58,351 bases of DNA from a virus (IMGVR_UViG_3300026196_000002:1-58351), one strand, 5' to 3'. Shown: positions 1,667 to 49,164, counted from the stretch's first letter. Notes: generated from the sequence alone by a model not told the origin. Translations and numbers: made by a program.

Positions 1667-3751
1667 GTGGCCGTAAAAATCCACCCTTCAGTAAAGCCAG
1701 ACACACCGCTGGCGAAAATCCCTAGTCATGCTAAGTACCGTATGGCTCAACATGGGGCTGATATTGTCATTGGTGGTGATCACCCAACACTGGTGCTGCC
1801 GGAAGTCCGCGCCGATAAGTGGGGAGGTACGTGCTGGCTGACGGTTCGCCATGCCGACGCCGACCAGATGCATCCGCAGGATCGGCATACCGAGCGACTG
1901 GCTAATGGTAAGGTGGAGCTCGATCTGCCGGTCAGTGCCAAAGGCCGGACGCACCGGATAAAGCAGGGGTCGCTCAAGTGGGATATTGAGTATGCATCTG
2001 CGGAGTCGCTGCCTGCTGACGGGATCGAGCGGTTCAGCCTTGAGTCACCTGCTGGGCTGACATGGCATCACCAGTCTGCCTTGACACAGGCAGAAATCGA
2101 CGCGGGGCTCTCTCGTCCTGAGAACGTCATCAACTCTTACGCAGCCTACTGGAACCAATCAAACAATCAGTACGGCACCGGCAAATTCGCCCATCTTTAC
2201 CGCCCGGAAATGGTCGATGCTAGTGGTAACCGCGCTTGGGCCACCCAAGAGATTGTCGGTGATGAGCTGCGAGTAGTCCTCCCCCTCGGGTGGCTTGAGA
2301 CGGCGACCTACCCCGTCACCCTCGACCCAACTTTTGGGTTTGAATCGGTTGGTGCGTCTACTCGAAATGCATTAAATAATTATCTCATGGGGATTGGACC
2401 GTTCACGCCAACAGCTTCCGGGACTGTTACCTCCATATCCATCTATATGACGGTGGCGACTGACGGGACATCGGTAACGATGGGCCTGTACGACGATACT
2501 GCTGCTGACCCGGCAAATCGTCTCGGCAGCAGTTCCGGTGGTTCGGTCCCCAATGCGTGGGGATGGCGGGAACAGTCGGTGAGTGCGGAAGTCACGGGAG
2601 GAGCGGATTATTGGGTAGCTCAAAACCACGATACCGGCTACGCCTATCTCAAGTTTGACAGTGTTGCCGATTTCCATGGTGTTTATACTTCTGACACCTA
2701 TTCCGCAGGGTCGCTGCCAGACCCATTCGGCGCGATTGGCGGGTCTTGGTCTAATACTAAACATTCAGCATACGCCACCTATGCCGAGGGGACAAGTAGT
2801 TTTGGGTTTGTTGATAGTGGCGGGTTCAGCTTTGAAAATGATGGCGGCTTCGATTGGGGGGATACTGACGGCACCCTGACTTCTCCAGCGATTTCGGCAC
2901 AGCCGGTTGTCTCTTCACCAACTTTGCTTGGCGTCAGGGTTGGGATCATGACCGCCCCACCCGTCAGCGCCCGGCCTGCAGTTTCGGCAGTGGTTGCGAC
3001 GGGGGTTCAAAACGGCGAACTGACCGCCCCACAAATTAGTGCCCAACCAGTCGTCAGCCCCTCAACCCTGACGACGACGGCAGCGGCGGTGATGACTTCT
3101 CCGCAGGTTAGCGTTCAGCCTGTCGTCTCCTCCTCGGTTTGCACGGGCACCCAAAACGGGGCCATGACCGCCCCGGCAGTCAGTGCGCAGCCAACGGTTA
3201 CCGCCTCATTCCTTGTTGGCGGAGCTGTCGGCGTGATGACCTCTCCACAAACAACAATTCAGCCGAGCGTTGTTTCTTCCCTGTTATCGGCTGGGTCTTT
3301 CGGCTTGATGGATCCTCCGGCGGTTACAGCCCAACCGGCTATCTCTGTGTCAACTCTGTTCGGCGTCCGTAACGGGTCAATGTCCTCGCCGCCCGTTTCT
3401 GTCCAGCCTGAAATTGTTGCGACAGTCGCCTATGGTCTGCGCAGCGGGGATATGACTTCGCCAGCCGTGACGGTTCAGCCTGTTGTTCTGGCGGCGTCTC
3501 TGGCGGTCGGCATTCTCGATGGGGCAATGGCCTCCCCGGCGGTCAGTACCAGGCCGAAGCTTGCCGTTTCCTTGTTGTCTGGAGTGAGGATCGGGGCACT
3601 GGCAAGCCCAGCCCTGACTGTTCCGCTCTCTGTTACGGCGTCAAGATTATTGGTCGGGTCGGCAGAGGGCAACCCAAGGGAGGTTATTTATTTCCAGGGG
3701 CGGATAAAATCAATTACGCTTGATGGGCGGGTTAAAAACATACAAATTTAA
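1667..3751 (+). CDS. Putative virion structural protein with repetitive C-terminal half
   Basis: 694 aa; repeats of the form G-x-MTSPxVSxQPxV; lies in the tail gene region. Confidence 0.65.
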   Translation: MAVKIHPSVKPDTPLAKIPSHAKYRMAQHGADIVIGGDHPTLVLPEVRADKWGGTCWLTVRHADADQMHPQDRHTERLANGKVELDLPVSAKGRTHRIKQGSLKWDIEYASAESLPADGIERFSLESPAGLTWHHQSALTQAEIDAGLSRPENVINSYAAYWNQSNNQYGTGKFAHLYRPEMVDASGNRAWATQEIVGDELRVVLPLGWLETATYPVTLDPTFGFESVGASTRNALNNYLMGIGPFTPTASGTVTSISIYMTVATDGTSVTMGLYDDTAADPANRLGSSSGGSVPNAWGWREQSVSAEVTGGADYWVAQNHDTGYAYLKFDSVADFHGVYTSDTYSAGSLPDPFGAIGGSWSNTKHSAYATYAEGTSSFGFVDSGGFSFENDGGFDWGDTDGTLTSPAISAQPVVSSPTLLGVRVGIMTAPPVSARPAVSAVVATGVQNGELTAPQISAQPVVSPSTLTTTAAAVMTSPQVSVQPVVSSSVCTGTQNGAMTAPAVSAQPTVTASFLVGGAVGVMTSPQTTIQPSVVSSLLSAGSFGLMDPPAVTAQPAISVSTLFGVRNGSMSSPPVSVQPEIVATVAYGLRSGDMTSPAVTVQPVVLAASLAVGILDGAMASPAVSTRPKLAVSLLSGVRIGALASPALTVPLSVTASRLLVGSAEGNPREVIYFQGRIKSITLDGRVKNIQI

Positions 3752-6958: not shown

Positions 6959-7300
6959 ATGAGTTTTGAATATTACGGGCCTAGCATGGCCATAGAGGAA
7001 GAAATCAGGCCTTTTGATCTTCACTGTCCACTGATGGGCGGAGGGCTAAACTTTTACAAGGAAAAATGCTTGGCAAGGCAAAGGAACCCACAGGATTCAA
7101 CATGCTATGGTGGGTGTCGAGGAATCAGGGTTAATAGCATGGCAAAAAAGAATAAACTAAATGGGGCGAAAAAAACCGGAAACAGGGCCGCAGCTATGCT
7201 CATGCTGAAGCACAATGTCCCAGTTTCAGAAATCGCCAAAGCCCTGAATGTCAGCAAGGCAACCGTTTATAAATACAAAGGAGGGAGAAATGGCAAATAA
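6959..7300 (+). CDS. Cys-rich protein with C-terminal HTH
   Basis: VPVSEIAKALNVSKATVYKY. Confidence 0.65.
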   Translation: MSFEYYGPSMAIEEEIRPFDLHCPLMGGGLNFYKEKCLARQRNPQDSTCYGGCRGIRVNSMAKKNKLNGAKKTGNRAAAMLMLKHNVPVSEIAKALNVSKATVYKYKGGRNGK

Positions 7301-7751
7301 GTGGATCGGCGTTGGAAATTTAACCAAAGACCCAGATATTAGGTATACACCCCAAGGAGCTGCAGTAACAACATTTTCAATCGCCTGCAATGAGCGGTTT
7401 AAAGATCGGGATGGGAACAAAAAAGAGAAAACTGAATATATCAACATTGTCGCCTGGCGGCAGCTGGCGGAAATCTGCGGGAAGTATCTGCACAAGGGGA
7501 AACAAGTTTATATCGAGGGGAAGATCCAGACCAGTTCCTACGATGATCGCGACGGGAACAAGCGCTATATCACCGAAATCGTTGCTGACCAGATGGAGAT
7601 GCTGGGGGGGCGCGATGATCGCCAGCAGGCGCAGGGTGCCAGCGGCGGGCAGCAGGGGCAGGGCGGCGGTGGTTGTCAGGAACCGGTTTTCAACCCGGAT
7701 GATGAGATACCGTTTTTTCTCCCACATGAGCGACGTGAGGTTAAGTGTTGA
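7290..7751 (+). CDS. ssb: Single-stranded DNA-binding protein
   Basis: NKWIGVGNLTKDPDIRYTP...GKQVYIEGKIQT...DDEIPF. Confidence 0.95.
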   Translation: MANKWIGVGNLTKDPDIRYTPQGAAVTTFSIACNERFKDRDGNKKEKTEYINIVAWRQLAEICGKYLHKGKQVYIEGKIQTSSYDDRDGNKRYITEIVADQMEMLGGRDDRQQAQGASGGQQGQGGGGCQEPVFNPDDEIPFFLPHERREVKC

Positions 7752-8192: not shown

Positions 8193-8497
8193 TATTCCCA
8201 AAGCCGAAACGCTGGAAGAGCAAAAAATACCGGGATGCCGCCAGGGATCAGAATTGCAAGCTCCGCCTGCCAGGGTGCATGAACAATACCGAAACGGTTG
8301 TCCTCGCCCATCGCGGCGGCGCAGGAATGGCGATAAAGGCCTGCGACCACAACGCGGTTGACGCCTGTTTCCATTGTCATTCAATCCTTGACAGGCCGGA
8401 TTACTGGCCATGGCCAAAGAAGGAAATGGAGAGTCGGTTCAATCGCGGGCGCCTGGAAACCCTCATTGACCGGATCGAGCGGGGGATTTTAAAATGA
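8189..8497 (+). CDS. DUF1364-like Zn-binding putative nuclease
   Basis: ARDQNCKLRLPGC...ETVVLAH...ACFHCH. Confidence 0.75.
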   Translation: MIFPKPKRWKSKKYRDAARDQNCKLRLPGCMNNTETVVLAHRGGAGMAIKACDHNAVDACFHCHSILDRPDYWPWPKKEMESRFNRGRLETLIDRIERGILK

Positions 8498-8984: not shown

Positions 8985-9188
8985 ATGAAAATAGAACAAG
9001 AAAACCCACTTTATAAACCGATAACTATCACGCTTGAAGAATGGCATGAAGCAAAAGCATTGTTCGGAATTATTGATAAGGCTGAGGTGTGGAGATGCAA
9101 CGCAGAAAACCCAAAATTTACCCACGACGAAATTAAAATGTTAATAGACTTATCAGACGCACTGACCAACCAAGTTGTAAGCGTATAA
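8985..9188 (+). CDS. Cassette ORF, hypothetical
   Basis: RBS AAGGAG; stop codon within the GTATAAC core. Confidence 0.75.
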   Translation: MKIEQENPLYKPITITLEEWHEAKALFGIIDKAEVWRCNAENPKFTHDEIKMLIDLSDALTNQVVSV

Positions 9189-9318
9189 CTGACTTAGATC
9201 AGCTGCGGCGACGTGAAGTTAAGTTTATTACCGCATTAATCGGATAAAACAGACGTATGTTCCGTCCGCTTGATGCACTGGTTAGGTTCTTATCACAACT
9301 TTTTGAAAGGGAGTAATC

Positions 9319-9525
9319 ATGGCAGCAGAAGCTATTTATATTGTTTGGTGCCCGACCGGAGATACCCCACCAATTATCCGCCACCAGTCAGTTGACGAAG
9401 CACGAAGGGCGGCAAGGGATATGTGCCAAAATCACCCACACAAGGAATTTTTTGTGATGAGGGCTGTTGAGTCTGTGCAATACAGAACAGACCCTTTTGT
9501 TTGCAAGAGCTACTGTAAGCGTTAA
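9319..9525 (+). CDS. Cassette ORF, hypothetical phage protein
   Basis: RBS GGGAG; bounded by GTTAGGTTCTT and AAGAACCTAAC. Confidence 0.75.
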   Translation: MAAEAIYIVWCPTGDTPPIIRHQSVDEARRAARDMCQNHPHKEFFVMRAVESVQYRTDPFVCKSYCKR

Positions 9526-9642
9526 GAACCTAACATTACAAATAACTGGTGGCGACGAGCCGACCGAGCATTTAGCGAACAGGGTGTTCCATCCACGTTG
9601 ATTTGCTGGTTAGTTTGCGCTGCTGAGAAGAGGAGAACGACG

Positions 9643-9804
9643 ATGGCAAAAGGTGAAATGGATAAACAGCCCTGCAAAACCTGCGGAAAAGAAACGAACC
9701 AAGTCTTTAATATTGGATTCAAGGCTGTGCCCATTTGTAATTCGTGTGCGAACACGATAGCTATGCAGCAGTTGGGATGGTTGATTGAACACCAAGCAAC
9801 CTAA
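9643..9804 (+). CDS. Cassette ORF, Zn-finger (two CxxC)
   Basis: CKTC...CNSC; RBS AGGAG. Confidence 0.7.
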   Translation: MAKGEMDKQPCKTCGKETNQVFNIGFKAVPICNSCANTIAMQQLGWLIEHQAT

Positions 9805-9839
9805 CGTTACTGATAACCAGGGGCGACGAGGAGGACGTA

Positions 9840-10127
9840 ATGACTGACGAAATGGACTGTAACAGTTGCGTAGTGACTGATTTGGAAGATCAAGAGTGCG
9901 ACGTGTGCCATGCAGAGCAAGTGCGTGAACCCGCACAGGAACACCCCTCTGCGTTAATTGGCTTGTTAGCACGCGCTCTTTGCAAGGCGGACACCCTTGG
10001 ATATGAGCGCGGTTTCACTGACGCAGACCCTACGGCTGGAAACACCGATGATGCGTTAATGGAGGTGGTTGAAATGACATGGAAAGAATGGATAGAGGAC
10101 GCCGAGCAAGTTTTACGTGCGTGCTAA
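9840..10127 (+). CDS. Cassette ORF starting inside the attC loop
   Basis: RBS GAGGAGG inside site 9799-9971; two CxxC. Confidence 0.7.
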   Translation: MTDEMDCNSCVVTDLEDQECDVCHAEQVREPAQEHPSALIGLLARALCKADTLGYERGFTDADPTAGNTDDALMEVVEMTWKEWIEDAEQVLRAC

Positions 10128-10237
10128 CGTTGGAATAAGCGCGTGGCGGGTAATAGCTGGCGACAGGGTTTGATCCTGTGAACCACACCACTATTTCCAT
10201 CCGCTTCATGTACATGGTTAGCCAAGGAGTAGACATT

Positions 10238-10495
10238 ATGAAAAAGGGATATTTAATTTTAGCAAGAGCTCCGCTGCTACCAATACATGCGGTATGTGAG
10301 TTTATTTTATTGCTGGCAACCTTAATACTGCTGCCGTTTATTTGGATGTCTGGGCGGCTTATAGATATTGCCGAAAAGATGCCAGACATGAGTTGGTACA
10401 AGGGGGCTGAGTACCACAACTTAAAGGCGAGGATAAACGCGAAAATTAAAAAACGCCTGAAAGAGAAAGAAGCTCGTTTGCCGAAGGCTGACTAA
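10238..10495 (+). CDS. Cassette ORF, membrane protein
   Basis: RBS AAGGAG; hydrophobic segment. Confidence 0.7.
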   Translation: MKKGYLILARAPLLPIHAVCEFILLLATLILLPFIWMSGRLIDIAEKMPDMSWYKGAEYHNLKARINAKIKKRLKEKEARLPKAD

Positions 10496-10526
10496 CTATT
10501 GAGATAACCGGATTGTGGAGGAAGAG

Positions 10527-10778
10527 ATGGCATTTTGCAAACACAATGGCGGTGGACCGAAGACGTGCCCGGCATGTCGTCGCGAGGGTAGCAATTCCGC
10601 GTTGATTGACGGGTTAGCCGCCGAACAGATCAAAAAGGGGATAAGCGAGATTCTTCATGCCGCCCTGAGTGGAATAGACGAAACCCTGCGACATGAGAAA
10701 AGTTATATACGATGGGGGCTGGTCGAGAAAAGGATACATGAGAAAGTGGATGAACTGCTGAATGTTCATGGCGGCTAA
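10527..10778 (+). CDS. Cassette ORF starting inside the attC loop
   Basis: RBS GGAGG in the attC arm; CKH...CPAC. Confidence 0.7.
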   Translation: MAFCKHNGGGPKTCPACRREGSNSALIDGLAAEQIKKGISEILHAALSGIDETLRHEKSYIRWGLVEKRIHEKVDELLNVHGG

Positions 10779-10880
10779 CGAAATTAATAAGCGGCGGCGG
10801 CTCAATGGTGGGCCGCGTAGCGGCGCGGACAGGTTCACCGTCCGCTTGATTTAAGGGTTGTACGGCAGAGGAGGTGGAAA

Positions 10881-11039
10881 ATGGCATGCCCTGGATGTGG
10901 TTGTAAGGTGACTTACCAGCACGACTGTATGGACGACGACTACAATAGCGAAGGTGAAGAGTACGAACGGTGCGCAGCCTGCGGCTTTGTTTTTGATATT
11001 GAACTGGCCGCAGATGATGACGACGCCGAAAATTTTTAG
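10881..11039 (+). CDS. Cassette ORF, 52-aa acidic Zn-finger
   Basis: Manual translation MACPGCGCK...RCAACGF...; RBS GAGGAGG. Confidence 0.75.
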   Translation: MACPGCGCKVTYQHDCMDDDYNSEGEEYERCAACGFVFDIELAADDDDAENF

Positions 11040-11091
11040 CCGTACAACGCCCCAGTAAGCGGCTACGACGAAATGACGGAGGATTGACGCA

Positions 11092-11388
11092 ATGGAATGT
11101 ACACACCCAGAACCAAGGGCCTATTGTAAGCACGATGACGGATGCAACGACTGCGGCAAGTTTGGTTTAGCAGAGCCGGTTCCTAGTCCGCTTGACGATA
11201 TGGTTAGCCTGCAAGCAGTTCGAGCGTGCATCGAATATCTTTTAAATGGATTTGAGAGCCGAGAAGATGTCACACCACGAAAAATTTGTTTAGAGGCACT
11301 GCAAAGAAATGGGATACCGCTTGACGTTAAGTACAGCACCTTAGCAGAACGAACCAAAAGATACACTGTGAGCGTGGAAGGCAGATAA
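11092..11388 (+). CDS. Cassette ORF starting inside the attC loop
   Basis: Cys-rich N-terminus encoded in site 11042-11209. Confidence 0.65.
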   Translation: MECTHPEPRAYCKHDDGCNDCGKFGLAEPVPSPLDDMVSLQAVRACIEYLLNGFESREDVTPRKICLEALQRNGIPLDVKYSTLAERTKRYTVSVEGR

Positions 11389-11534
11389 ATTTTTCAGTAG
11401 GCTAACGCCCACGCATGAGCTGCGGCGACGAACTGCCGACCCGCGCCAGCGGAGTACCCCGCTATGTTCCGTCCGCTCGATGCGATTGTTAGATACGCTC
11501 TTCAATTTATTTTTATTTTATTTTACTTTTTCTG

Positions 11535-11563
11535 TTGACATGTGTCCCCATTGGGAATATAGT
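11535..11563 (+). promoter_or_regulatory. Strong sigma70 promoter inside a cassette, with a palindrome in the spacer
   Basis: TTGACA-17 bp-TATAGT; AT-rich upstream tract; TCCC..TGGGA dyad in the spacer. Confidence 0.85.
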
Positions 11564-11604
11564 TAAATAACAAACAAGGAACACTAACCCAACGGAGGCA
11601 CATC

Positions 11605-11925
11605 ATGGAAACAACATTAATCGTATCGTCCGGCCAGTACGAAACATCAGCTGTAAAGCTAGCTGTCAATCATAAGACGTGGGGCGGCCTCTGTCGCCGA
11701 ATTACCCAACTTGAAAATCAGTATGCTGTTTATGGTGACAATTTCGCGGGCTGGCTAAAAGCAAGTGTTTCGCTGGCGGACAGCCGCGACGAGTGGGGGG
11801 ATAATCAAATCATCGGGGGCCAGTGGTGCCAGCCCTATAACGGATGGCTGTCAGTGGAAGAAATCGATGGTCCGTTTATGTCCTACGATGATCTCCATAA
11901 AAAACTTTATGGGTGCAACCGATGA
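11605..11925 (+). CDS. Cassette ORF, hypothetical, with its own promoter
   Basis: RBS GGAGG; 106 aa. Confidence 0.8.
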   Translation: METTLIVSSGQYETSAVKLAVNHKTWGGLCRRITQLENQYAVYGDNFAGWLKASVSLADSRDEWGDNQIIGGQWCQPYNGWLSVEEIDGPFMSYDDLHKKLYGCNR

Positions 11926-12101
11926 CACCCGCCGAATTAATGGAGGACCGGCAAACGCTGGGCCTCAATATTACGCAGATGGCAGCCCGCCTGAACACGC
12001 CGCGTGGAACCTATTTGAAATGGGAGCGCGGTGAACGACGGGTGCCACCATGTTTGGATGTGCTGATACCGTTGGTGATAGAAAAAGACGGGAGTATCTA
12101 A
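11922..12101 (+). CDS. Small XRE-type HTH protein
   Basis: RQTLGLNITQMAARLNTPRGTYLKWERGER; ATGA overlap with the upstream ORF. Confidence 0.85.
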   Translation: MTPAELMEDRQTLGLNITQMAARLNTPRGTYLKWERGERRVPPCLDVLIPLVIEKDGSI

Positions 12102-12222
12102 CGGTGGTGATAAGCGGTGGATTGCTACCGCTTGCATACAAACGAATTAATCAAACTAGCAGCATGTAACAACCATCCGCTTGATTAGGTTGTTATAATG
12201 CGCTGTTTCGCAGGGGGCGGGA

Positions 12223-12405
12223 ATGGATGCAAAAGAGACTAGCAGATTGATAGGTGCCGCGTATAAGCGAGGCATTGAGGATATCTGCGACACAATGGCT
12301 GAATCTGTCCGAATTATTGCAGAAGGCTTGCCGGGAGTAACCTTCACAACACAAGACTTAATAGCCTTTATAGAGAAGGCCAAAAATGAGGGCCTAGCAT
12401 TATAA
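12223..12405 (+). CDS. Cassette ORF, hypothetical
   Basis: Fills the cassette; stop codon in the core site. Confidence 0.7.
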   Translation: MDAKETSRLIGAAYKRGIEDICDTMAESVRIIAEGLPGVTFTTQDLIAFIEKAKNEGLAL

Positions 12406-12535
12406 CAGTGATGATAACCAGTTGCCGTAGACAGGTGGATTGACCGCCGAGCAGTTATAGGGAGAACACGCGCCGCTCCTTGCAATCTGCGTTGATTTTT
12501 TGGTTAGTTTGCGCTGCTGAGAAGAGGAGATAACA

Positions 12536-12742
12536 ATGTTTAAACATGATGATAACTGTCCTGTTTGCGTAAAACACCCAATAGACGAGGTGCAATGCCA
12601 ATGTAAAGACCAATTTTATAGGGAAAAATTGGCGCTGGAATATTGTAACCAATACAACATAAACGATGATTCACCAGAAAGGGATGCAATAATAAACGCG
12701 TTTATAGTTGGGATAACTATTGGAGAAAAACGAGCAAACTAA
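12536..12742 (+). CDS. Cassette ORF, Cys-containing hypothetical
   Basis: RBS AGGAG; stop codon in the core site. Confidence 0.7.
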   Translation: MFKHDDNCPVCVKHPIDEVQCQCKDQFYREKLALEYCNQYNINDDSPERDAIINAFIVGITIGEKRAN

Positions 12743-12838
12743 CGGTAAAGCTAAGCGGCGGCGACGCGAGGCTTAAATAAAAACACCAGACGGATAACCC
12801 GTCCGACTTTAGCACCTTGTTAGGCGTGGGAGAATGAA

Positions 12839-13003
12839 ATGCAAATATTGGAACTTGTAAAACTGCTGAACCAGCAGGCAAACGAGATAGCGTCTGCTGG
12901 GCATAATGGCTGGGGAAATACAATGCGAGATGCTGCCGACAAACTTGAGGAGTTGCAAGAGCGTATTTACCAACTAGAGAATCAATGTGCTAATGGTGCC
13001 TAA
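12839..13003 (+). CDS. Cassette ORF, 54-aa coiled-coil
   Basis: Manual translation MQILELVKLLNQQANEIASAGHNGWGNTMRDAADKLEELQ...; stop codon in the core site. Confidence 0.7.
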   Translation: MQILELVKLLNQQANEIASAGHNGWGNTMRDAADKLEELQERIYQLENQCANGA

Positions 13004-13049
13004 CGGTAGTGATAAGCGGCGGATTGCCGCCAGAAGGGATACCACCGCA

Positions 13050-13322
13050 ATGGGCAGAAAAGAGCCAACACCTCCGCCAGAAAATGCCGTGAAGCCTTCG
13101 CCACCACCAGCACCACCTGTTCGGCAAAATTCGGCTGCTTGTTCCCGTCCGGTTGATTTGATGGTTATACGCAAAACCTTGGAGCGCGAAATTGCTTCTA
13201 AGCAAAAATCCGTTGATAGACTGCACCGAAAGGGTGCATTGGAGGCCGCTGCAAGGGAGGACGCTGTACGCGAAGGGCTAGCGTGGGGGCTATTCGTGCT
13301 GTCCCAAAAGTGCAGCGTATAA
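13050..13322 (+). CDS. Cassette ORF with Pro-rich N-terminus encoded in the attC
   Basis: MGRKEPTPPP...SRPVDLMVIR; start position uncertain. Confidence 0.55.
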   Translation: MGRKEPTPPPENAVKPSPPPAPPVRQNSAACSRPVDLMVIRKTLEREIASKQKSVDRLHRKGALEAAAREDAVREGLAWGLFVLSQKCSV

Positions 13323-13451
13323 CGACCTGCATAACAGGTGGCGACGTGCCGATGAAACTATTGACGCAATCAAAGCGGTTTTCGGGGAGCACAGACCTAT
13401 TTTCCATCCGCGTTGATGCACTGGTTAGCCCATACCAGAAAGGATCGCACG

Positions 13452-13646
13452 ATGTACGATAGAGATTTTTTAATTTGGCTACATGAGCGCATGGAGCATG
13501 TACACCAAGAAAGCCATTTAGTAGATTACATGCACAAGTTACGAGCGATAATTAAAAGGACCCCGCCAAAGCAAATGACACCGAATGCCATGGGCAAAAA
13601 CAACCTTGAAGAGCTGAAAGAGGAACTAGGCATCTTAAAGGGCTAA
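13452..13646 (+). CDS. Cassette ORF, hypothetical phage protein
   Basis: DRDFLIWLHERM...DYMHKLRAII. Confidence 0.75.
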   Translation: MYDRDFLIWLHERMEHVHQESHLVDYMHKLRAIIKRTPPKQMTPNAMGKNNLEELKEELGILKG

Positions 13647-13784
13647 CGCTTGCGGATAACCGGTGGCGCTGCTAACTGACAACCTTTACCGCAATTTAGA
13701 TTTTGCTTTTTGTAAACCACAGAGGCCCATTCCATCCGCGTTAATTAGCTTGTTATGTGGCCTGTTTCGGAATAGGGGACTGAT

Positions 13785-13970
13785 ATGAAAATAGTTATTG
13801 AACACGATACAGACGAAAAACAATACGGACGTGTGTTGGTGCAGACAAAGCATGGTGGACGATCTGATGTTAGCAATGGGGACTATGTTGAATTAACGCC
13901 TGAATTATTAGATGCGATTCAAAAAGCACAGGTTGAAATGGACAGGGTGAGTAGACTTTTGAAAGTTTAG
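13785..13970 (+). CDS. Cassette ORF, hypothetical
   Basis: RBS AGGGG; fills the cassette. Confidence 0.7.
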   Translation: MKIVIEHDTDEKQYGRVLVQTKHGGRSDVSNGDYVELTPELLDAIQKAQVEMDRVSRLLKV

Positions 13971-14102
13971 ATGCCACATAACAGTACTGATAAGCTGCGG
14001 CGACGCACCCTTTGCGGGCCACCGAGCTTATCGTAAACCACGGCGCTATTCCCCGTCAGCTTGATTATTTTGTTATATTTTAATTTTACACGGAGCAAGT
14101 TT

Positions 14103-14309
14103 ATGAAAAAACAAAGACCTATTTTTATTGAATACTCATGGGTTGACCCGTGGGACGGCAGTTTTTGTGCTGGAGGGAGTTGCCCATATTTAAAAGGAAG
14201 AATGCTACGCGGTGTATACCGCAAAGAAATTCTTGCTGCGAAGAAACTTGCAAGGGGATGGACCGGGCCCAGAACCCCAAGACTGCAGGTATTAGTCCAT
14301 AAAATATAA
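14103..14309 (+). CDS. Cassette ORF, basic hypothetical
   Basis: RBS GGAG; stop codon in the core site. Confidence 0.65.
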   Translation: MKKQRPIFIEYSWVDPWDGSFCAGGSCPYLKGRMLRGVYRKEILAAKKLARGWTGPRTPRLQVLVHKI

Positions 14310-14409
14310 CGCCCATGTTAAGCGGTGGCGGATGGACGGTGACTAAGAAGCAGACGCCTTGTTCCATCCGCTTGAACTAATTGTTAGCCCAAACCACAGG
14401 AGATCAAAA

Positions 14410-14580
14410 ATGATACAGATTGAACAGGTGGCAAATGGTTTTGTGGTGACTTCTGGCATAATGCACCGCGGAGAGTGCCGCAGCAATGATGACACGTACG
14501 TTTTTCAAACAATGGAAAATCTCCAAAAGTGGATTGATCAACATTTTAGCCCCGTGCAAAAGACCGCGAGGCAAGATTAA
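14410..14580 (+). CDS. Cassette ORF, hypothetical
   Basis: RBS AGGAG; IEQVANGFVV motif. Confidence 0.75.
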   Translation: MIQIEQVANGFVVTSGIMHRGECRSNDDTYVFQTMENLQKWIDQHFSPVQKTARQD

Positions 14581-14701
14581 GGGCTAACGTCAATGGTAAC
14601 CGGAGGCGACGAACCGGCTCGGCTACCTACGCAATTTTGATTTTCAATTTTGCACAGACGTATATTCATTCCGGTTCACTCAATTGTTAGCGAGGCGCTT
14701 T

Positions 14702-14926
14702 ATGGACTACCTAGGGATTTGGCTTCTTGTGCTGGTAGCGTTTGCCGGTGGGTGGGGATGGGGGCAATGGCAAGCAGAAAGAACAATGCGGCAAGAAAAG
14801 TCGCTGAACGAAAAAGGACGAGTGGTTGTTTCTATGCCAATGCGTGAAGACAACGCTTCTCAAATGATGGGGATGCTACAGGATTTAATAAAGCAGGCCG
14901 AAGAAACCAACGCCGAGCCACGCTAA
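14702..14926 (+). CDS. Cassette ORF with N-terminal transmembrane segment
   Basis: RBS GAGG; hydrophobic N-terminus. Confidence 0.7.
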   Translation: MDYLGIWLLVLVAFAGGWGWGQWQAERTMRQEKSLNEKGRVVVSMPMREDNASQMMGMLQDLIKQAEETNAEPR

Positions 14927-15051
14927 CAGTACTGATAAGCTGCGGCAGCGCACCCCTTGCGAACCGCCGCGCTTATCGTAAACCACAGCGCCATTTTTCC
15001 GTCAGCTTGATTTGATGGTTCAACGCCTACGCTACCAAGGGAGATAAAATT

Positions 15052-15240
15052 ATGGCAAACAGGAAAAGGTATACAAAGGTGACGCGGAATGAGGCGTGCT
15101 GTATTTTCGACGAAGACGGGCTGCTTGGAGAAATCGAAATTTTCCTCGAAGCTGAAGAGCCTGGCGACAAAATCACCCTCGAAATTGTTTCCATGACTGA
15201 GGATGAGTACGCCTCTTTGCCAGAATTCACTGGTTGGTAG
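15052..15240 (+). CDS. Cassette ORF, acidic
   Basis: RBS GGGAG; C-terminus similar to 48207..48389. Confidence 0.75.
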   Translation: MANRKRYTKVTRNEACCIFDEDGLLGEIEIFLEAEEPGDKITLEIVSMTEDEYASLPEFTGW

Positions 15241-15375
15241 GCGAGCGTTGAACGATTGGAATAAGCGGTGGAGCAGCTACCAGAGAGAACCTACGCAATT
15301 GCTCTTGCTTTTTGAGAACCGGCGCGGATCGGACATCCGCTTGATTTTGTGGTTATGCGTAACCACAGGAGGTTG

Positions 15376-15573
15376 ATGATGGGGATTATACGATTAACGC
15401 CGCAGTTACGGTACATCGAAACCGATGAGAATATGTCGAGTTTATCGCCGTGCACGCATCTACCCGGATACCCTGAAAATGGCAGCACGTTTTTCAAATT
15501 ACAGCAGGCGTGGGAAGATATTGAAGACGGAAGTTTGCATTGGAAAGACGTAGAAATTGATTATAGCGCATAA
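15376..15573 (+). CDS. Cassette ORF, hypothetical
   Basis: RBS AGGAGG; KLQQAW...WKDV motif. Confidence 0.75.
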   Translation: MMGIIRLTPQLRYIETDENMSSLSPCTHLPGYPENGSTFFKLQQAWEDIEDGSLHWKDVEIDYSA

Positions 15574-15701
15574 CGGTGCTGTTAAGCGGGTACGACGCGA
15601 CCTGTGAGACGCACCGAACAATTATCTTTGAAATCAGCAGCAGCCAATTTTACTCCGCTTGAACTTTTGGTTGTGCTGCAAACACTTTGAGCGAGGCAAA
15701 A

Positions 15702-15896
15702 ATGAACCCGATTGTAAAAGGTAGGTTTATATCAAACAAATGCCCAGATCCAAATTGTGATGGTGTTTTGCAACACAGACAGAACAAATATGGAGAAAAC
15801 CGCTGGGAATGTGACGGCCTTGTTGACCCAAATGATATTACAAAAGAGCTGCAACCCTGCCTTGTGGACGTGGTAGACGGGGAGTTACGTTTATAG
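15702..15896 (+). CDS. Cassette ORF, Zn-ribbon-like
   Basis: CPDPNCDG...WECDG...PC. Confidence 0.7.
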   Translation: MNPIVKGRFISNKCPDPNCDGVLQHRQNKYGENRWECDGLVDPNDITKELQPCLVDVVDGELRL

Positions 15897-16011
15897 CAGC
15901 ACAACGGTGAAGATAAGCGGCGGCGATGTGCCGTAACCTATGGAAAACAAAGCTATTTTCCGTCCGCCTTCATTTTATTGTTATAATTCGTACTTTATTT
16001 GCTGATTTCCC

Positions 16012-16039
16012 TTGACAACGTAACTAGTTATGGTAATAT
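16012..16039 (+). promoter_or_regulatory. Sigma70 promoter inside a cassette, with palindromic operator TAACTAGTTA
   Basis: TTGACA-16 bp-TAATAT with extended -10 TG; perfect 10-bp palindrome at 16021-16030. Confidence 0.75.
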
Positions 16040-16066
16040 CTAAGTAACTTAACAAAGGAGGCAGCC

Positions 16067-16258
16067 ATGAAGCAAAAAACTTGGATTAAGTATTCTGTGA
16101 AATCAATGATGGGTGAAGTTGTCAACGGTGAGATAAACCTGAATTGGGCGTTTGATGCTGACTTGGTGAACAATTTCGACAAGACCATGCGCTACCTTGA
16201 GCGGGACGCCGGTTGTTATATCAAGGAAGTTCTCGAATTTGAGTCGGGGACAAAATGA
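16067..16258 (+). CDS. Cassette ORF, hypothetical, with its own promoter
   Basis: RBS AAGGAGG. Confidence 0.8.
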   Translation: MKQKTWIKYSVKSMMGEVVNGEINLNWAFDADLVNNFDKTMRYLERDAGCYIKEVLEFESGTK

Positions 16259-16410
16259 CCAAACTTGATGACCTTCTGGAAGGGCTAACCGAGGCCGAAT
16301 TGAAAACACTACGTGCCAAGATAAACGGGAAGATCGGAAAGCGTAGTATATCGCCAGAGGCACAGGCCAAGATGCAGGAAGCGCGCAAGAAAAAGCACCA
16401 AGAATTATAA
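16255..16410 (+). CDS. 51-aa basic protein, possible DNA-binding autoregulator
   Basis: Manual translation MTKLDDLLEGLTEAELKTLRAKINGKIGKRSISPEAQAKMQEARKKKHQEL; ATGA overlap. Confidence 0.7.
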   Translation: MTKLDDLLEGLTEAELKTLRAKINGKIGKRSISPEAQAKMQEARKKKHQEL

Positions 16411-16539
16411 CATTTGGAATAACCGGTGGCCGTAGAAACCTGCGTGAGCCACCACTATTTTGCACTTAAATTTACAACCGCAGCCAGTTGCCATCCGCGT
16501 TGATGTCCCTGGTTATGTGGCCTGCTGAATGGAGGGAAA

Positions 16540-16710
16540 ATGCCAGATTTTGAGAGAGTGTTGGACGAACTGAGTATTGACCTAGCGCAGACAGATGCAG
16601 ATAGGCAGTATGCAAAAGGATATATAGCCGGTAAAAACCGGGCGCGGTTTGAAATACTTGGAGTGGTGGTTGTGCTGTATTTTGTAATAGCACTAATCGG
16701 TAAACTTTAA
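16540..16710 (+). CDS. Cassette ORF, 56 aa with C-terminal transmembrane segment
   Basis: Manual translation; RBS GGAGG. Confidence 0.7.
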   Translation: MPDFERVLDELSIDLAQTDADRQYAKGYIAGKNRARFEILGVVVVLYFVIALIGKL

Positions 16711-16841
16711 GCCACATAACAGTACTGATAAGCTGCGGCGGCGCACCTTTTGCGCACCACCGAGCTTATCGTAATTTGCAGCGCCATTTTCCGTCAGCTT
16801 GATTTGATGGTTGGCTGGCGCTGGTTCCTACGGAGAGAATA

Positions 16842-17033
16842 ATGAGCAAGAAAGAGCGACGGAACTACACCATTACCGCCGAACGTTCTGACCACGGCAA
16901 GTCGTCAGTTGACATCAAGTGTCCATTTTGTGGCTCGATCACAACCGCTTACCTTTGGTCCCTGGCCGGCAGTGGGAAAAAATGTGAATGTGGGGCAAAG
17001 CATACATATCTGAACGGGACAATTGCGGCATAG
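16842..17033 (+). CDS. Cassette ORF, Zn-finger
   Basis: CPFCG...WSLAGSGKKCECGAKH. Confidence 0.75.
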   Translation: MSKKERRNYTITAERSDHGKSSVDIKCPFCGSITTAYLWSLAGSGKKCECGAKHTYLNGTIAA

Positions 17034-17160
17034 CCAGCCAACAGTGAAGATAACTGGTTACGACGCGAACCAGGCGAACCACCGAGTTTTTCGAGAACCG
17101 CATCTTTATTTTAATCCAGTTCATTTTTTGGTTAGTTTGCGAACCTTGAAAGGGCAACCG

Positions 17161-17343
17161 ATGATTACTAAAACTACAATTTCAAACTTTATAAAAAAGA
17201 TCGATAAAAAGCAGATAAAAATCGGAAAAGAGCGAGACTCTTTAGACGACCTGATTTCTGATATGGCACAACTGCGCGAGGACTGCAGCGAAGCATGGGA
17301 CAATTTGCAGGACGCAAGAGACGCGCTGAGCCGTATGCAGTAA
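17161..17343 (+). CDS. Cassette ORF, coiled-coil
   Basis: Fills the cassette. Confidence 0.7.
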   Translation: MITKTTISNFIKKIDKKQIKIGKERDSLDDLISDMAQLREDCSEAWDNLQDARDALSRMQ

Positions 17344-17461
17344 AGCAAACTAACGTTCGAGTAAGCGGCAGCGGAAAACTGCCAAAATAAGAACCACACA
17401 GCTATTTTCTGTCCGCTTGACGTAGCTTGTTAGGCGTTACCACTACCGATGGAGCGTGGGA

Positions 17462-17647
17462 ATGATTGCTGATCTGAAACAACCGGCAAAATACTGGCTG
17501 GCTGATCACCTGAATAACTTTGGAGTATTACTCGAAAAAGGAGAAGACCCAAGTTGCCTGATTACCTACGGTGGTGTAGAGATCGAGATTAGGCTGAATA
17601 AGGTGCCAGGAGTCTTCGAGCGTAAAGAAATTTCACTTAGCGCCTAA
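17462..17647 (+). CDS. Cassette ORF, hypothetical
   Basis: RBS GGAG; stop codon in the core site. Confidence 0.7.
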   Translation: MIADLKQPAKYWLADHLNNFGVLLEKGEDPSCLITYGGVEIEIRLNKVPGVFERKEISLSA

Positions 17648-17675
17648 CGACCTGATAACCGGATTTGTGGAGGAT

Positions 17676-17972
17676 ATGATGGAAAAGTTTGTTGATGCGT
17701 TGCCAGAAGGTGAGCGTGAGCTACGTAAGTTTTTTGCAGAGACGGAAACAAATTCCGCGTTGATTGACTTGTTGTGCCCAGCCCGGATCGAGATAACCAC
17801 CGACCACATAGCCGAGAAATTGGATGAAATGGCCGACATTGCAGAATACTGGAGAAAGAACAGAGATAAAAAACGTATGCCAGGTGCGATACGTGCCGCA
17901 ATGCTGATGCTGGCCGAAGAATTGACCATGCTTAACAAAGTAAATGAAATTCCTAGACAGGAGTGCGGCTAG
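17676..17972 (+). CDS. Cassette ORF starting inside the attC loop
   Basis: RBS GGAGG in the attC arm; NSALIDLLC is encoded by the other arm. Confidence 0.7.
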   Translation: MMEKFVDALPEGERELRKFFAETETNSALIDLLCPARIEITTDHIAEKLDEMADIAEYWRKNRDKKRMPGAIRAAMLMLAEELTMLNKVNEIPRQECG

Positions 17973-18137
17973 TTATTTTAAGGGCACAACGCCCTGATAA
18001 CTGCGTTTGCGGGAAAGTACGTAGACATTATTCGGACAGGGGCGCAAAACGAGAAACCTAGACCGATTAAATTTGCAGAGCTGAAAGCAAATCCACGTTG
18101 ATTACGCTTGTTAGCCTGCCGAGAGAGGTAGCTAATC

Positions 18138-18329
18138 ATGAAAGTTTCGGAATTGATGGAACGGCTTGGAAAATACAACCCTGACGCTGATGTGGATGTT
18201 GTAGCCAATAACAAGGGCCACGAGTTCTCTTTTGCGTACGGCAATAGCGAAGGCTGCACCATAGAAAATTGTGAGACTGTTAGTTTGTGGGTAGACAGCT
18301 TAAATGACGGTGGCGAGTCAGCAGGCTAA
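18138..18329 (+). CDS. Cassette ORF, hypothetical phage protein
   Basis: MKVSELMERLGKYNPDADV-type N-terminus. Confidence 0.75.
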   Translation: MKVSELMERLGKYNPDADVDVVANNKGHEFSFAYGNSEGCTIENCETVSLWVDSLNDGGESAG

Positions 18330-18451
18330 CGGCTTGGTCAGCGGATGCGACGCAATGCTTGTGAACCACTGACCTCTTCAAAAATTTGCAGAAGTATTTT
18401 CATTCCGCTGCACTGAATGGTTGTGCGGCAAACAGCCAGAGCGAGGTAGAA

Positions 18452-18652
18452 ATGTTTGCATATCATTATTTTGCAGAGTTTAAGTGTGCGGCAGGCACAG
18501 CCAGGATGGATGGGGTAATCACGAGCGACAAAAAGATAGTAGATTACGACGGATACACAGCGATGAAGCGAGAAATCACAAAAGGGACAGACATTGAGGG
18601 TATGCCAGAGAAGCTATCTGTTTGCTCGTTGCAGCTACTTCATAAATTTTAG
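18452..18652 (+). CDS. Cassette ORF, hypothetical
   Basis: RBS GAGG. Confidence 0.7.
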   Translation: MFAYHYFAEFKCAAGTARMDGVITSDKKIVDYDGYTAMKREITKGTDIEGMPEKLSVCSLQLLHKF

Positions 18653-18705
18653 CCGCACAACGCCATAGTAACCGGCTACCCACTGAAAGAAAGGAACGCT
18701 GCGCA

Positions 18706-18984
18706 ATGAAATGCGACAAACACGATTGCTGGCTTGATGAAGAACCAAATAACCCAAGTGCGCTGTACTGCCCATTGTGCGAGGCAGAGCGGGACGTTAG
18801 TCCGGTTGACGAACTTGTTAGACCGCAGGCGCATATTGCAAGCGATTGCTCTGCAGAACACTTTGAGCGCGTGTTTAACTGGCAGAAACAAAATTTTACC
18901 TGCGCTAAATGTGGGACTGGACGCAGTGTGAAATATAAGAAGGGTGGAAAGCCGTACTGCAATATGTGTGTTCTAGCGGGCTAA
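18706..18984 (+). CDS. Cassette ORF, multiple Zn-finger motifs, starting inside the attC loop
   Basis: CDKH, CPLC, CAKC, CNMC. Confidence 0.7.
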   Translation: MKCDKHDCWLDEEPNNPSALYCPLCEAERDVSPVDELVRPQAHIASDCSAEHFERVFNWQKQNFTCAKCGTGRSVKYKKGGKPYCNMCVLAG

Positions 18985-19105
18985 CGAGGGAGTTGAGCGC
19001 TGCGGCGGTAGCGCACTGGCGAACCACCGCAATTTTGCTCTTGTAAATTTGCAGAATATTTTTCCGTCCGCTCGAACGTTTGGTTAGATTTACGGAGGCT
19101 ATAGA

Positions 19106-19315
19106 ATGGCAAGCGCGTATAGAGATGTTGATATTCGTGGACTTAGAAAGGCGCATTTTAACCAACTGCGAAACTATGTGCACAGTAGAGATGAGGAAGG
19201 CTGGTACTACGGCAACAAGGAGCAGTTTGAAAAGAGGCACGAAGACCTGAAACAATGGATTGATTCTGTTTGCGATCTATTTAACCAGAGTGATGTTGTT
19301 ATTGAGAAGAAGTAA
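19106..19315 (+). CDS. Cassette ORF, hypothetical
   Basis: RBS GGAGG; GWYYGNKEQFEKRH motif. Confidence 0.75.
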   Translation: MASAYRDVDIRGLRKAHFNQLRNYVHSRDEEGWYYGNKEQFEKRHEDLKQWIDSVCDLFNQSDVVIEKK

Positions 19316-19434
19316 ATCTAACGGTGAAGATAAGCGGCGGGGATTGACTGCCGACCCGCGAAGCGGCAACGCACAGCTAACCCCGTCCGACTTGATTATT
19401 TGGTTCTATTTCTAACCTGAAACGGAGAACGATT

Positions 19435-19617
19435 ATGGAAGTTTACAGACCGGACCGCCGCTGTGAAATTACCGGAATGCCACTTGACACATCTTCTATG
19501 GGTTTTTGGTCTTCGCCATTTAAAAAGGCTAAACGTGGCGGTACAAAAAGGACTGCTAAACAAAAAGAAAAGCAAAAGATGCAAAAGGCTAGCAGGCGTA
19601 AAAACCAGAAGAAATAG
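19435..19617 (+). CDS. Cassette ORF, highly basic
   Basis: KMQKASRRKN C-terminus. Confidence 0.7.
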   Translation: MEVYRPDRRCEITGMPLDTSSMGFWSSPFKKAKRGGTKRTAKQKEKQKMQKASRRKNQKK

Positions 19618-19759
19618 AACGTGAGTTATTAACCGGCGACAACGAGACTTAACAACTTACAGCGCAATTTAGATTTTTCTTTTCGGACAAAAACAGAAGC
19701 CGATTTCGTCCGGTTGAATTATTTGTTAGTTTGCGCTGTTACAAAAGAGGGAGGACGAT

Positions 19760-19942
19760 ATGCAATTGACACTACAGGAAGTTATGGATATTTGCCCTAG
19801 TTGGGATGATTTCTGCGAGTTAAAGGGCTTCAGCCCTTATGCAGTAAATGAGGGAGGTGGACACGTTGAGGTGAGCTTGACGCTTGAGGAAGCCTGCAAT
19901 TTGAAGATGGTAAAAAGCTGGAAGTACCCACAAGAAAACTAA
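19760..19942 (+). CDS. Cassette ORF next to the attI-like site
   Basis: RBS GGAGG; stop codon in AACTAAC. Confidence 0.75.
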   Translation: MQLTLQEVMDICPSWDDFCELKGFSPYAVNEGGGHVEVSLTLEEACNLKMVKSWKYPQEN

Positions 19943-19955
19943 CCAGCATTAGGCG
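19937..19955 (-). other. Candidate attI-like primary insertion site of array 1
   Basis: Minus strand reads CGCCTAAT-GCTG-GTTAGTT; core site with no attC hairpin; same motif as 48186-48204. Confidence 0.6.
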
Positions 19956-48206: not shown

Positions 48207-48389
48207 CTACACTTCTGGAAGCGCTGCCATTTCCTCATCGGTCATGTCGAACCTCTTGAACCGCAGCGTTATTTCCTCTCCCTCATCCATGCTATCCTCT
48301 GTGCAAATAAGTTCCCCATCAACATTAACCGGCACTGGTATCCATGAGTCGTGCCCTTCTTCCCAATAAAACAATCTCGCCTTTTTCAT
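48207..48389 (-). CDS. Cassette ORF, acidic
   Basis: MKKARLFYWEEG...MTDEEMAALPEV. Confidence 0.75.
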   Translation of the reverse strand: MKKARLFYWEEGHDSWIPVPVNVDGELICTEDSMDEGEEITLRFKRFDMTDEEMAALPEV

Positions 48390-48495
48390 CTGTATTCCCC
48401 TTTCGTAGGTAAGCCGTACAACCAGCAAATCAAGCGGATGAAAATACTGGTGTGGTTTCTATTCAGCGGTCATCCGTCACCGCTTATCATGGGCG

Positions 48496-49069: not shown

Positions 49070-49164
49070 TGCCTCTCAGAATAAGGCTAACAATTAGTTC
49101 AAGCGGATGGAACAAAGCGTCTGTCTCTTAGTCACCGCCCATCCGCCACCGCTTAACATTGGCG

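Follow-up and report, generated by a model that had tools for sequence, protein, structure and literature searches.

Two integrase-less arrays of attC sites with 38 mirror-image gene cassettes in a phage genome

Introduction

The window analysed here (IMGVR_UViG_3300026196_000002:1-58351) is a whole virus genome from the IMG/VR database, 58,351 bp in length and rated 100% complete, with a direct terminal repeat of 127 bp (1-127 = 58225-58351). Its source is a tailed phage without an integrase: neither an integron integrase (TIGR02249) nor a tyrosine recombinase (PF00589) was matched in the complete record. About 23% of this phage genome (13.5 kb) is organised as two arrays of attC sites comprising 38 cassettes. 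The sites have the structure of attC, and their polarity is reversed, the recombinogenic bottom strand being the strand that encodes the small open reading frames (ORFs) between them. The same arrangement recurs in other viral contigs, and one cassette breakpoint was found at the predicted crossover. Overall, it is likely (probability of about 0.7) that this genome carries two integrase-less arrays of genuine attC sites, forming 38 mirror-image cassettes that would be shuffled by integrases of the host.

Structure of the attC sites

Direct repeats and the raw sequence revealed a repeat unit of the form TAAC ... GATAAGCGGCGG ... CCGTCCGCTTGAT ... GGTTAG between the small ORFs. On the ORF strand, the sites open with YAAC, a spacer of about 6 nt and a box of 7 nt; after the loop come a box of 8 nt that includes one extra base, a spacer of about 5 nt and GTT. 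This order confirms the geometry given in an earlier prediction made from this sequence alone (hereafter the original prediction). That prediction had described the extra base as a G and had noted that a second unpaired T is often present. By eye, the extra base was found to be G in 30 of the 38 arms and C, A or T in the others. When a rigid layout (3 bp, bulge, 6 bp, bulge, 3 bp, with at least 10 of 12 pairs) was fitted by script, 25 of the 38 sites fit, the first bulge being G in 15 and the second bulge T in 18; several of the remaining rigid fits were one-base register shifts of the same layout. The central spacer between the R and L boxes is asymmetric, with 6 nt on one side and 5 nt on the other in the commonest fit (12 sites).

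For a search of the whole genome with filters off, 18 array-1 sites were taken in their + strand reading to make a covariance model (R1). It gave 38 matches at E <= 6e-4, 31 on the + strand between 9183 and 19731 and seven on the - strand between 48416 and 50901 (Table 1), and 27 of these score above 45 bits. The next-best match in the genome had an E value of 0.06, and the opposite strand at the same 38 places scored at most 12.1 bits. A second covariance model (R2) was trained on 71 canonical bottom strands only, the alignment of which was fitted with R1. It matched 37 of the 38 phage sites, 28 of them with E <= 0.001 and the best with 1.7e-10, and its only other match at E <= 1 fell elsewhere in the genome, at 3061-3111 (E 0.37). 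Rfam at gathering thresholds gave no match in the genome.

The AAC and GTT motifs were found to be invariant in all 18 aligned sites, with their three pairs kept in 18 of 18. RNAalifold folded the same alignment into a stem with two bulges on the 3' arm and with compensatory changes in 9 of 12 pairs. With the AAC/GTT pairs added, 94.8% of the cells are paired, compared with 83.9% in shuffles and at most 50% in slid controls, and two-sided changes are seen in 9 of 16 pairs, a number reached by none of 500 shuffles. By structure and by two-way model detection, the phage hairpins have the make-up of genuine attC sites. By definition, a cluster of attC sites lacking an integron integrase (CALIN) has at least two sites on the same strand, spaced by less than 4 kb, and no such integrase in the vicinity (PMC4889954). 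Both arrays, with 31 and 7 sites and no TIGR02249 or PF00589 match in the record, are clusters of this type; they are not a complete integron, as the phage record has no intI, attI and the cassette promoter Pc not having been searched for as such.

Polarity of the cassettes

The bottom strand can be told by its structure: it is the one on which IntI cleaves the AAC of R', and its extrahelical bases are on the arm opposite AAC (Nivina et al. 2016, PMC5027507). In the phage sites, AAC is on the 5' arm and the extrahelical G and T are on the 3' arm of the ORF strand, so that the recombinogenic hairpin strand would be the sense strand of the ORFs. This layout is the mirror image of the coding-strand layout of aadA1 on plasmid R100, where TAAC and 5 nt precede an 8-nt box that has an extra C, and a 7-nt box is followed by 6 nt and GTTAGAT. 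The cmlA5, blaVIM-4, arr-3 and dfrA1 cassettes likewise have their extra bases on the 5' arm of the coding strand. When 85 loci surrounding intI1 or a relative of it were searched with R1, each of the 88 matches fell on the intI strand, antisense to the genes of the cassettes. Among them are the sites of the aadA1, cmlA5 and arr-3 cassettes that are annotated there, and the aadA1 site of R100 was found at E 5.7e-10. These five cassettes and the 88 matches, together with Nivina et al. (2016), uphold the premise of the original prediction that the bottom strand is the non-coding strand in ordinary integrons.

The comparison of model strand with ORF strand, which had been proposed as a check, was made with R2: despite its training on canonical sites, this model called 31 + strand sites in array 1 and six - strand sites in array 2. 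In every case the bottom strand was placed on the strand of the ORFs; the outcome that would have refuted the original prediction, with the attC top strand on the coding strand, was not obtained. The two arrays face opposite ways and the bottom strand is the sense strand in both, which ties the rule to the direction of the genes and not to a strand of the genome. A strict geometric scanner was also tried on 35 intI1 loci, where it gave 57 top-geometry and 25 bottom-geometry hits on the cassette sense strand, with a background of 22 hits over both strands of 282 kb of control flank. Being right in direction but noisy, it was replaced by the covariance models.

The assignment of the coding strand is supported by several features of the ORFs. 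All 31 array-1 cassettes contain a + strand ORF of 52-106 amino acids that starts with ATG, and a Shine-Dalgarno (SD)-like motif was found 3-10 nt upstream of the ATG in 30 of them. The ATG lies 10-32 nt after the site in 23 array-1 cassettes, inside the attC loop in six, and 81 and 111 nt past the site in the remaining two, where it is preceded by the two best internal promoter-like sites. Codon-usage log-odds, trained on the long genes of the phage itself and comparing the sense ORF with the best antisense ORF, preferred the sense ORF in all 31 array-1 cassettes and in five of the seven in array 2. The coding strand thus coincides with the bottom strand, and not with the attC top strand, in every array-1 cassette and in most of array 2, as originally predicted.

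It is highly improbable that these are ordinary canonical cassettes whose true genes lie on the strand other than the one assumed. A crude call by the longest ORF does fall on the opposite strand in 6 of 36 window intervals. Against this stand the unanimous codon usage and the start codons of array 1, the SD motifs and the regular distance of the ORFs from the site. GC and AT skew have the same sign as in the long + strand genes of the phage, and the three best promoter-like sites are all on the + strand. PHROG families were matched by 3 of 30 ORFs, corresponding to a helix-turn-helix (HTH) regulator and two families of unclear function; homologues of two cassette ORFs were found in other viral contigs, as ordinary genes lacking attC sites (Table 1). 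All PHROG and tblastn homologues were found to be on the sense strand.

Array 2 also has two plausible ORFs on the + strand, 50108-50392 and 50519-50824. With the bottom strand opposite them, they have the polarity of ordinary cassettes and may have been acquired from a bacterial integron.

The mobile unit and its boundaries

With cleavage in the AAC on the sense strand, a cassette begins with the C of a core and ends with the AA of the core that follows. As judged from the sequence, the mobile unit would be attC-SD-ORF-TAA (C-attC-GTTAG-SD-ATG-small ORF-TAA), with attC travelling together with the downstream ORF. Each unit would bring its own ribosome-binding site, and its stop codon would often be the TAA of the next crossover core. 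The original prediction, which had proposed a unit of this order, had put the number of stop codons supplied by the core at about 19; the stop was found to be the TAA of the TAAC core at 20 of the 38 sites, 18 of 31 in array 1 and two of seven in array 2. The proposed order, unlike the usual ORF-attC unit, fits the six ORFs that begin within the attC loop, which a crossover at the 3' R box would split.

It fits a breakpoint as well. A cassette with a DNA methyltransferase gene on the bottom strand (Table 1) is common to L172, a viral contig, and L233, a metagenome contig, and the similarity starts exactly at TAAC. The two contigs are nearly identical from TAAC through attC into the ORF, and the sequences upstream are unrelated. 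Weak support comes from a contig of an independent soil run, which has 13655-13786 and 13960-13981 in common with the phage, a stretch from the right of site 13641-13758 and the 22 nt that lead up to the next core, and which diverges right after ...CATAA at 13981.

Some further observations concern the ends and the inner parts of the units. The last array-1 ORF ends in a CTAAC without a hairpin (19938-19945), as expected at the end of an array of attC-ORF-TAA units. ORFs that begin in the loop include the 3' arm of attC in their translation; the peptide NSALID occurs in two unrelated ORFs and is encoded by the attC arm (10590-10618 and 17752-17785). A conserved 5' untranslated region (5'UTR), GTTAGTTTGCGCTGCTGAGAAGAGGAGA and variants, follows the sites at 9608-9636, 12502-12530, 17130-17158 and 19724-19752, and the same 5'UTR follows attC in the unrelated viral contig L187 at about 3660-3700 on the - strand. 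Contig joints at 9285>14303, 12120>15334 and 13022>13687 were rejected as deletions, as they join similar attC repeats and are most likely branches of the assembly graph. The word share of 0.43 for X2 was likewise dismissed as a sign of array content; it reflects the same phage at low depth and is uninformative.

Reversed polarity in other contigs

A survey of viral databases for the same inversion, as proposed in the original prediction, was carried out with one structural pattern derived from the phage sites. The pattern matched 62 loci in IMG/VR and at least 120 stretches of metagenome sequence, 80 of the latter being used, and R1 sites numbered 167 in the viral and 196 in the metagenome loci. 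The unit counted was the unique interval of 120-2500 nt between neighbouring sites, with the strand taken from its longest ORF; intervals with no ORF of 30 amino acids or with a tie were set aside (one in the window, none in the intI1 loci, one viral and three metagenome). The longest ORF was found on the same strand as the bottom strand in 29 intervals of the window and on the opposite strand in six. The corresponding numbers were 2 and 36 for the intI1 loci, 71 and 26 for the viral loci, and 22 and 84 for the metagenome loci, so that the inversion applies to 71 of the 97 called viral intervals. The difference between viral and metagenome loci is seen by locus (29:10 vs 8:39, Fisher p 8e-8) and by interval (p 3e-14), and is kept in intervals shorter than 450 nt (46:12 vs 10:30).

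The ORF end adjoins the following site in 51 of the 71 viral intervals with the same strand, and the layout with a TAA in the core and SD-ATG is also found in L169, L214 and L179. The reversed layout occurs in many unrelated viral contigs with GC (guanine plus cytosine) fractions of 0.35 to 0.71. Five viral records were checked: terminal repeats are present in three and IntI in none, and each has 3-9 sites. The metagenome contig L237 (1-2400) carries an attC type nearly identical to that of the phage (90 and 79.7 bits) in a canonical array, in which ORFs of 329 and 213 amino acids run opposite to the bottom strand. L237 is an ordinary bacterial-type array. Another of its ORFs starts right after the last site; we take its product to be an IS110-family transposase, and its position recalls that of attC-targeting insertion sequences.

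The original prediction had interpreted the phage units as a distinct inverted class and not as ordinary host cassettes. The second part of this statement is borne out by the strand counts, by the canonical array of L237 and by the non-cassette homologues in viral contigs. The first part stands in that the phage arrays are reversed, and has to be qualified in that reverse cargo is already known in a minority of bacterial cassettes and two array-2 ORFs are canonical.

Alternative explanations

Several observations weigh against mobile cassettes of reversed polarity. The movement of the phage units by a host integrase is the step that we infer. No paralogues were found among the 43 cassette ORFs at E <= 0.01 by blastp, and in a self-blast of the genome the similarity around duplicated attC sites stops at the sites, with neither neighbouring ORF included. 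Among 80 loci of terminase relatives, with at most 56% identity, a single R1 match was found (L086), and with relatives nearly devoid of sites, gain or loss of cassettes is untraceable. The segment common to L187 and L191 comprises an upstream ORF, attC and the 5'UTR and ends at the next start codon, not at the R box, indicating that such regions are shaped as well by homologous recombination within conserved attC-UTR modules. The L170/L187-L191 mosaic was accordingly rejected as a case of cassette exchange, its breakpoints lying away from the R boxes. A more stable fold, purine richness and more G:T pairs are a statistical trend of the bottom strands of mobile integrons, not a defining property (Nivina et al. 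2016). All three are absent from the phage sites: the model strand is the more stable in only 19 of 38 sites, its purine fraction is 0.517 (38 sites), and it shows no excess of G:T pairs (1.47 vs 1.58). As to the survey, the longest-ORF call is crude, the loci were picked with one pattern from this phage, the label 'viral' was checked for five records only, and canonical polarity was found in 10 of 41 viral loci. Lastly, the published CALIN of phage TJE1 was called by R2 with three sites on the - strand and genes on the + strand, i.e., as canonical. This result agrees with the published description of the TJE1 cassettes, and also means that the method does not force an inversion.

Part of this evidence would suit phage regulatory or recombination modules that resemble attC and act without an integron integrase. 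Such hairpins could serve, as stem-loops of RNA or DNA before each early ORF, as translation insulators, processing sites, weak terminators or homologous-recombination hot spots, in the manner of the stem-loop cassettes of T4-type phages. The position of the sites 10-32 nt before SD and ATG, the absence of an integrase from the phage, the end of the L187/L191 similarity at a start codon and the missing folding bias and purine skew are all consistent with this explanation, as is the recurrence of a module of right arm and 5'UTR at 9591-9636, 12485-12530, 17113-17158 and 19707-19752 and in the unrelated contig L187. It is nevertheless considered unlikely, as the sites keep all determinants of IntI recognition, namely the invariant AAC and GTT, the 6/5 spacers and two bulges at canonical places, and as R1 and R2 cross-detect in both directions at E of about 1e-10. 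A near-identical attC type in the canonical L237 array and the L172/L233 break exactly at TAAC argue in the same direction, and R boxes would be needless in a purely regulatory hairpin.

Marginally less probable still is that the arrays are relics, assembled by an integrase in an ancestor or another element, with attC sites that are now unused and a polarity without present function. A relic would account for the lack of a phage integrase, of traceable gain or loss and of any duplicated cassette, and for the degenerate sites at 9799, 10490, 17642 and 18655 (R1 22-29 bits) and at about 17984, the last being missed by both models. However, the pairing described above is kept by compensatory changes, which argues for continuing selection on the fold. 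The 27 sites above 45 bits and the recurrence of the layout in unrelated viral contigs of widely differing GC fraction also speak against decay.

Expression of the cassettes and neighbouring genes

With arrays that are read through by phage transcription, all cassettes would be expressible without attI or Pc. In array 1, 29 of the 31 cassettes carry only an SD motif and appear to depend on such read-through transcription, for which the promoter-like site upstream of the array (Table 1) is a candidate source, identified by consensus match. Two cassettes, 11400-12101 and 15899-16410, each contain a pair of overlapping ORFs, preceded by the sigma-70-like sites that rank best in the region (TTGACA-17-TATAGT and TTGACA-16-TAATAT), and one of the second ORFs encodes an HTH_3 protein. 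These pairs look like toxin-antitoxin or regulator pairs of the kind found in chromosomal integrons.

Outside the arrays, Pfam matches comprise an SU10-type adaptor, SSB, a DUF1064 protein, an amidase and a TnpB-like protein, with a weak match to a P22-type portal. The best cultured relative by terminase is Pseudoalteromonas virus H6/1, with 50% identity. At the DNA level, the structural region gave no match to GenBank phages by megablast, and 13600-15400 gave none by blastn. The SSB gene (7248-7751, + strand) lies 1.4 kb upstream of array 1; SSB melts folded attC sites. An ORF of 2801 amino acids (37199-45604, + strand) encodes a polyvalent protein with RadC-like JAB, ART-PolyVal (ADP-ribosyltransferase) and LPD38 domains. 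The gene of the TnpB-like protein (45714-46892, + strand; OrfB_IS605, Cas12f1-like TNB) is located at the flip of gene direction and GC skew. No Pfam match to a transposase was found in the large ORFs scanned, including 46894-47646 and 47643-48098 by the TnpB-like gene, its small neighbours being outside the scan.

Table 1. Coordinates of the two arrays, their attC sites and associated features. Scores are in bits; positions are those of the window unless a contig is named.
Feature	Position	Strand	ORF(s)	R1	R2	Remarks
Promoter-like site	8466-8495	+				upstream of array 1; 10/12 consensus positions
Array 1	9183-19945	+	34 small ORFs, all +			31 model-found attC sites and one degenerate site by eye
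attC	9183-9287	+	9319-9525	73.1	18.7	
attC	9528-9615	+	9643-9804	61.1	26.3	right arm and 5'UTR module in common with 12485-12530 (repeat family D5)
attC, long loop	9799-9968	+	9840-10127	28.9	20.8	ORF starts in loop
attC	10122-10223	+	10238-10495	42.3	25.3	
attC	10490-10619	+	10527-10778	24.9	28.1	ORF starts in loop
attC	10773-10863	+	10881-11039	62.6	42.0	
attC	11042-11209	+	11092-11388	43.3	30.1	ORF starts in loop
attC	11400-11494	+	11605-11925, 11913-12101 (HTH_3)	46.4	32.9	promoter-like site 11535-11563
attC	12096-12198	+	12223-12405	71.5	33.0	
attC	12400-12509	+	12536-12742	48.5	11.9	R2 E 0.84
attC	12737-12825	+	12839-13003	66.1	39.8	
attC	12998-13167	+	13050-13322	36.8	29.2	ORF starts in loop
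attC	13317-13430	+	13452-13646	73.0	23.9	
attC	13641-13758	+	13785-13970	55.0	17.2	
attC	13976-14078	+	14103-14309	90.5	30.9	
attC	14304-14389	+	14410-14580	66.8	49.6	93% identity to array-2 site 49085-49171
attC	14582-14692	+	14702-14926	69.1	29.8	
attC	14921-15024	+	15052-15240	85.9	21.6	
attC	15247-15358	+	15376-15573	60.7	32.0	
attC	15568-15676	+	15702-15896	78.1	36.1	
attC	15899-15986	+	16067-16258, 16255-16410	67.5	33.6	promoter-like site 16012-16039
attC	16405-16518	+	16540-16710	36.2	13.7	R2 E 0.29
attC	16714-16816	+	16842-17033	93.0	31.7	ORF has 65% identical homologue in L205, outside any cassette
attC	17036-17137	+	17161-17343	77.9	18.9	
attC	17348-17435	+	17462-17647	61.6	39.5	
attC	17642-17777	+	17679-17972	22.7	26.1	ORF starts in loop
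Probable degenerate 32nd site	17984-18115	+	18138-18329	no match	no match	CACAAC ... CGTTGAT ... GTTAGCC, by eye only
attC	18324-18426	+	18452-18652	64.0	35.1	
attC	18655-18823	+	18706-18984	24.9	28.8	ORF starts in loop
attC	18979-19089	+	19106-19315	72.3	46.5	ORF has 46% identical homologue in L187/L170, outside any cassette
attC	19316-19409	+	19435-19617	56.0	23.9	
attC	19614-19731	+	19760-19942	52.5	18.5	
End of array 1		+	19760-19942			stop in lone CTAAC, no hairpin after
Array 2	48207-50901	-				seven attC sites, bottom strand = - strand; best ORF on - strand in 5/7 cassettes
attC	50831-50901	-	50519-50824 (+)	35.4	19.2	ORF in interval after site, canonical polarity
attC	50387-50491	-	50108-50392 (+), 49884-50081 (-)	79.7	38.4	+ ORF of canonical polarity
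attC	49771-49876	-	within 49513-49788 (-)	70.5	37.9	
attC, poor left arm	49441-49531	-	49165-49416 (-)	34.6	no match	
attC	49085-49170	-	48779-49063 (-)	63.7	49.8	
attC	48659-48765	-	48496-48645 (-)	59.7	31.7	
attC	48416-48501	-	48207-48389 (-)	62.7	37.1	
Methyltransferase cassette	L172 9020-9560; L233 8280-8820	L172 -; L233 +				N6/N4-type, SPPY motif; ORF starts inside attC loop

What distinguishes the phage cassettes from known systems?

CALINs of phages are already in print, and reverse-oriented cargo is known in bacteria. In bacterial integrons, reverse-oriented cassettes are a minority and need their own promoter. The phage cassettes resemble them in having cargo antisense to the attC top strand, and differ in that nearly every cassette is reversed and in that 29 of 31 in array 1 have only an SD motif. 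The PeSL (promoter early stem-loop) cassettes of T4-type phages are modules of a promoter and a stem-loop that recombine by homology. They too have small early ORFs split by repeated stem-loop modules that favour modular shuffling; unlike PeSL, the sites described here conform to the structural definition of attC and were found by an integron-trained model. Reverse-oriented toxin-antitoxin cassettes in a bacterial integron are shown by Richard et al. (2024, PMC13108822, Fig. 1B legend).

The closest precedent is a study of 10,705 phage genomes in which 17 CALINs of two or more sites apiece were identified (Qi et al. 2023, PMC9892861). In that study, IntI1 was found to recombine five of six tested sites of virulent phages, and bottom strands were more active than top strands. 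As in the genome described here, these attC clusters are in phages without IntI. The figured examples have 2-4 sites, compared with 38 in this genome, and TJE1 is described there with a typical cassette structure, canonical by R2, whereas this genome is reversed. No mention of reversed polarity was found in the text of Qi et al. (2023), the supplementary CALIN list of which may include such arrays. More generally, no report of whole phage arrays of this polarity, or of a phage with dozens of cassettes, was found in full-text searches of the literature, with the same supplement as a place where some may be listed.

The Vibrio cholerae superintegron (Richard et al. 2024) is similar in its long arrays of closely related attC sites between small ORFs and in its two-gene cassettes with their own promoters, which are represented here at 11535 and 16012. 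Unlike the superintegron, the arrays described here are in a virus and have no intI, and ORFs are on the bottom strand in 36 of 38 cassettes, compared with the top-strand rule in bacteria.

Proposed mechanism and biological implications

For mirror-image cassettes in integrase-less arrays, the following mechanism is proposed. The integron integrase of the host, acting in trans during infection, would excise, insert and reshuffle the units among phages. Reversal would keep the genes co-directional with phage transcription and replication, and may place the bottom strand on the non-template or lagging-strand-template side, where folding would be easiest. Location of the bottom strand on the lagging-strand template was found to strongly raise excision in Vibrio cholerae (Richard et al. 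2024). Reversal may further silence phage cassettes captured by bacterial integrons, as well as bacterial cassettes in phages. A broader and more tentative proposal, for which the odds are somewhat below even, is that phages keep their own pool of reversed cassettes, traded via host integrases. Reversal would then turn each cassette into a translation unit complete in itself within a phage operon that is read through, would put the recombinogenic strand in the position most favourable to folding, and would keep the phage and bacterial pools apart.

Integrons have been regarded as devices of bacteria, with phages carrying a few attC sites now and then. In this virulent-type phage, about a quarter of the genome consists of cassettes, and their reversed polarity recurs in viral contigs and not in bacterial-type arrays of the same attC type. 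A comparison of attC strand with ORF strand sorts cassettes by likely origin, and software that assumes an ORF-attC order would draw the boundaries of phage cassettes one ORF out of register. The arrays also bear on the birth of cassettes, as they provide a set in which attC is joined to the 5' side of genes.

If host integrases do shuffle these units, integrons would take part in the plasticity of phage genomes, as when small genes of the early or counter-defence type turn over, and the arms race between phages and bacteria would use the same recombinase on both sides. A DNA methyltransferase is encoded by one shared cassette. A phage cassette inserted at a bacterial attI would be antisense to Pc and silent, so that phage genes could be stored in bacterial integrons without harm. 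Phage-derived and bacterial cassettes could then be told apart simply by their polarity, and the phage arrays would represent a second, independent case of the joining of attC to genes.

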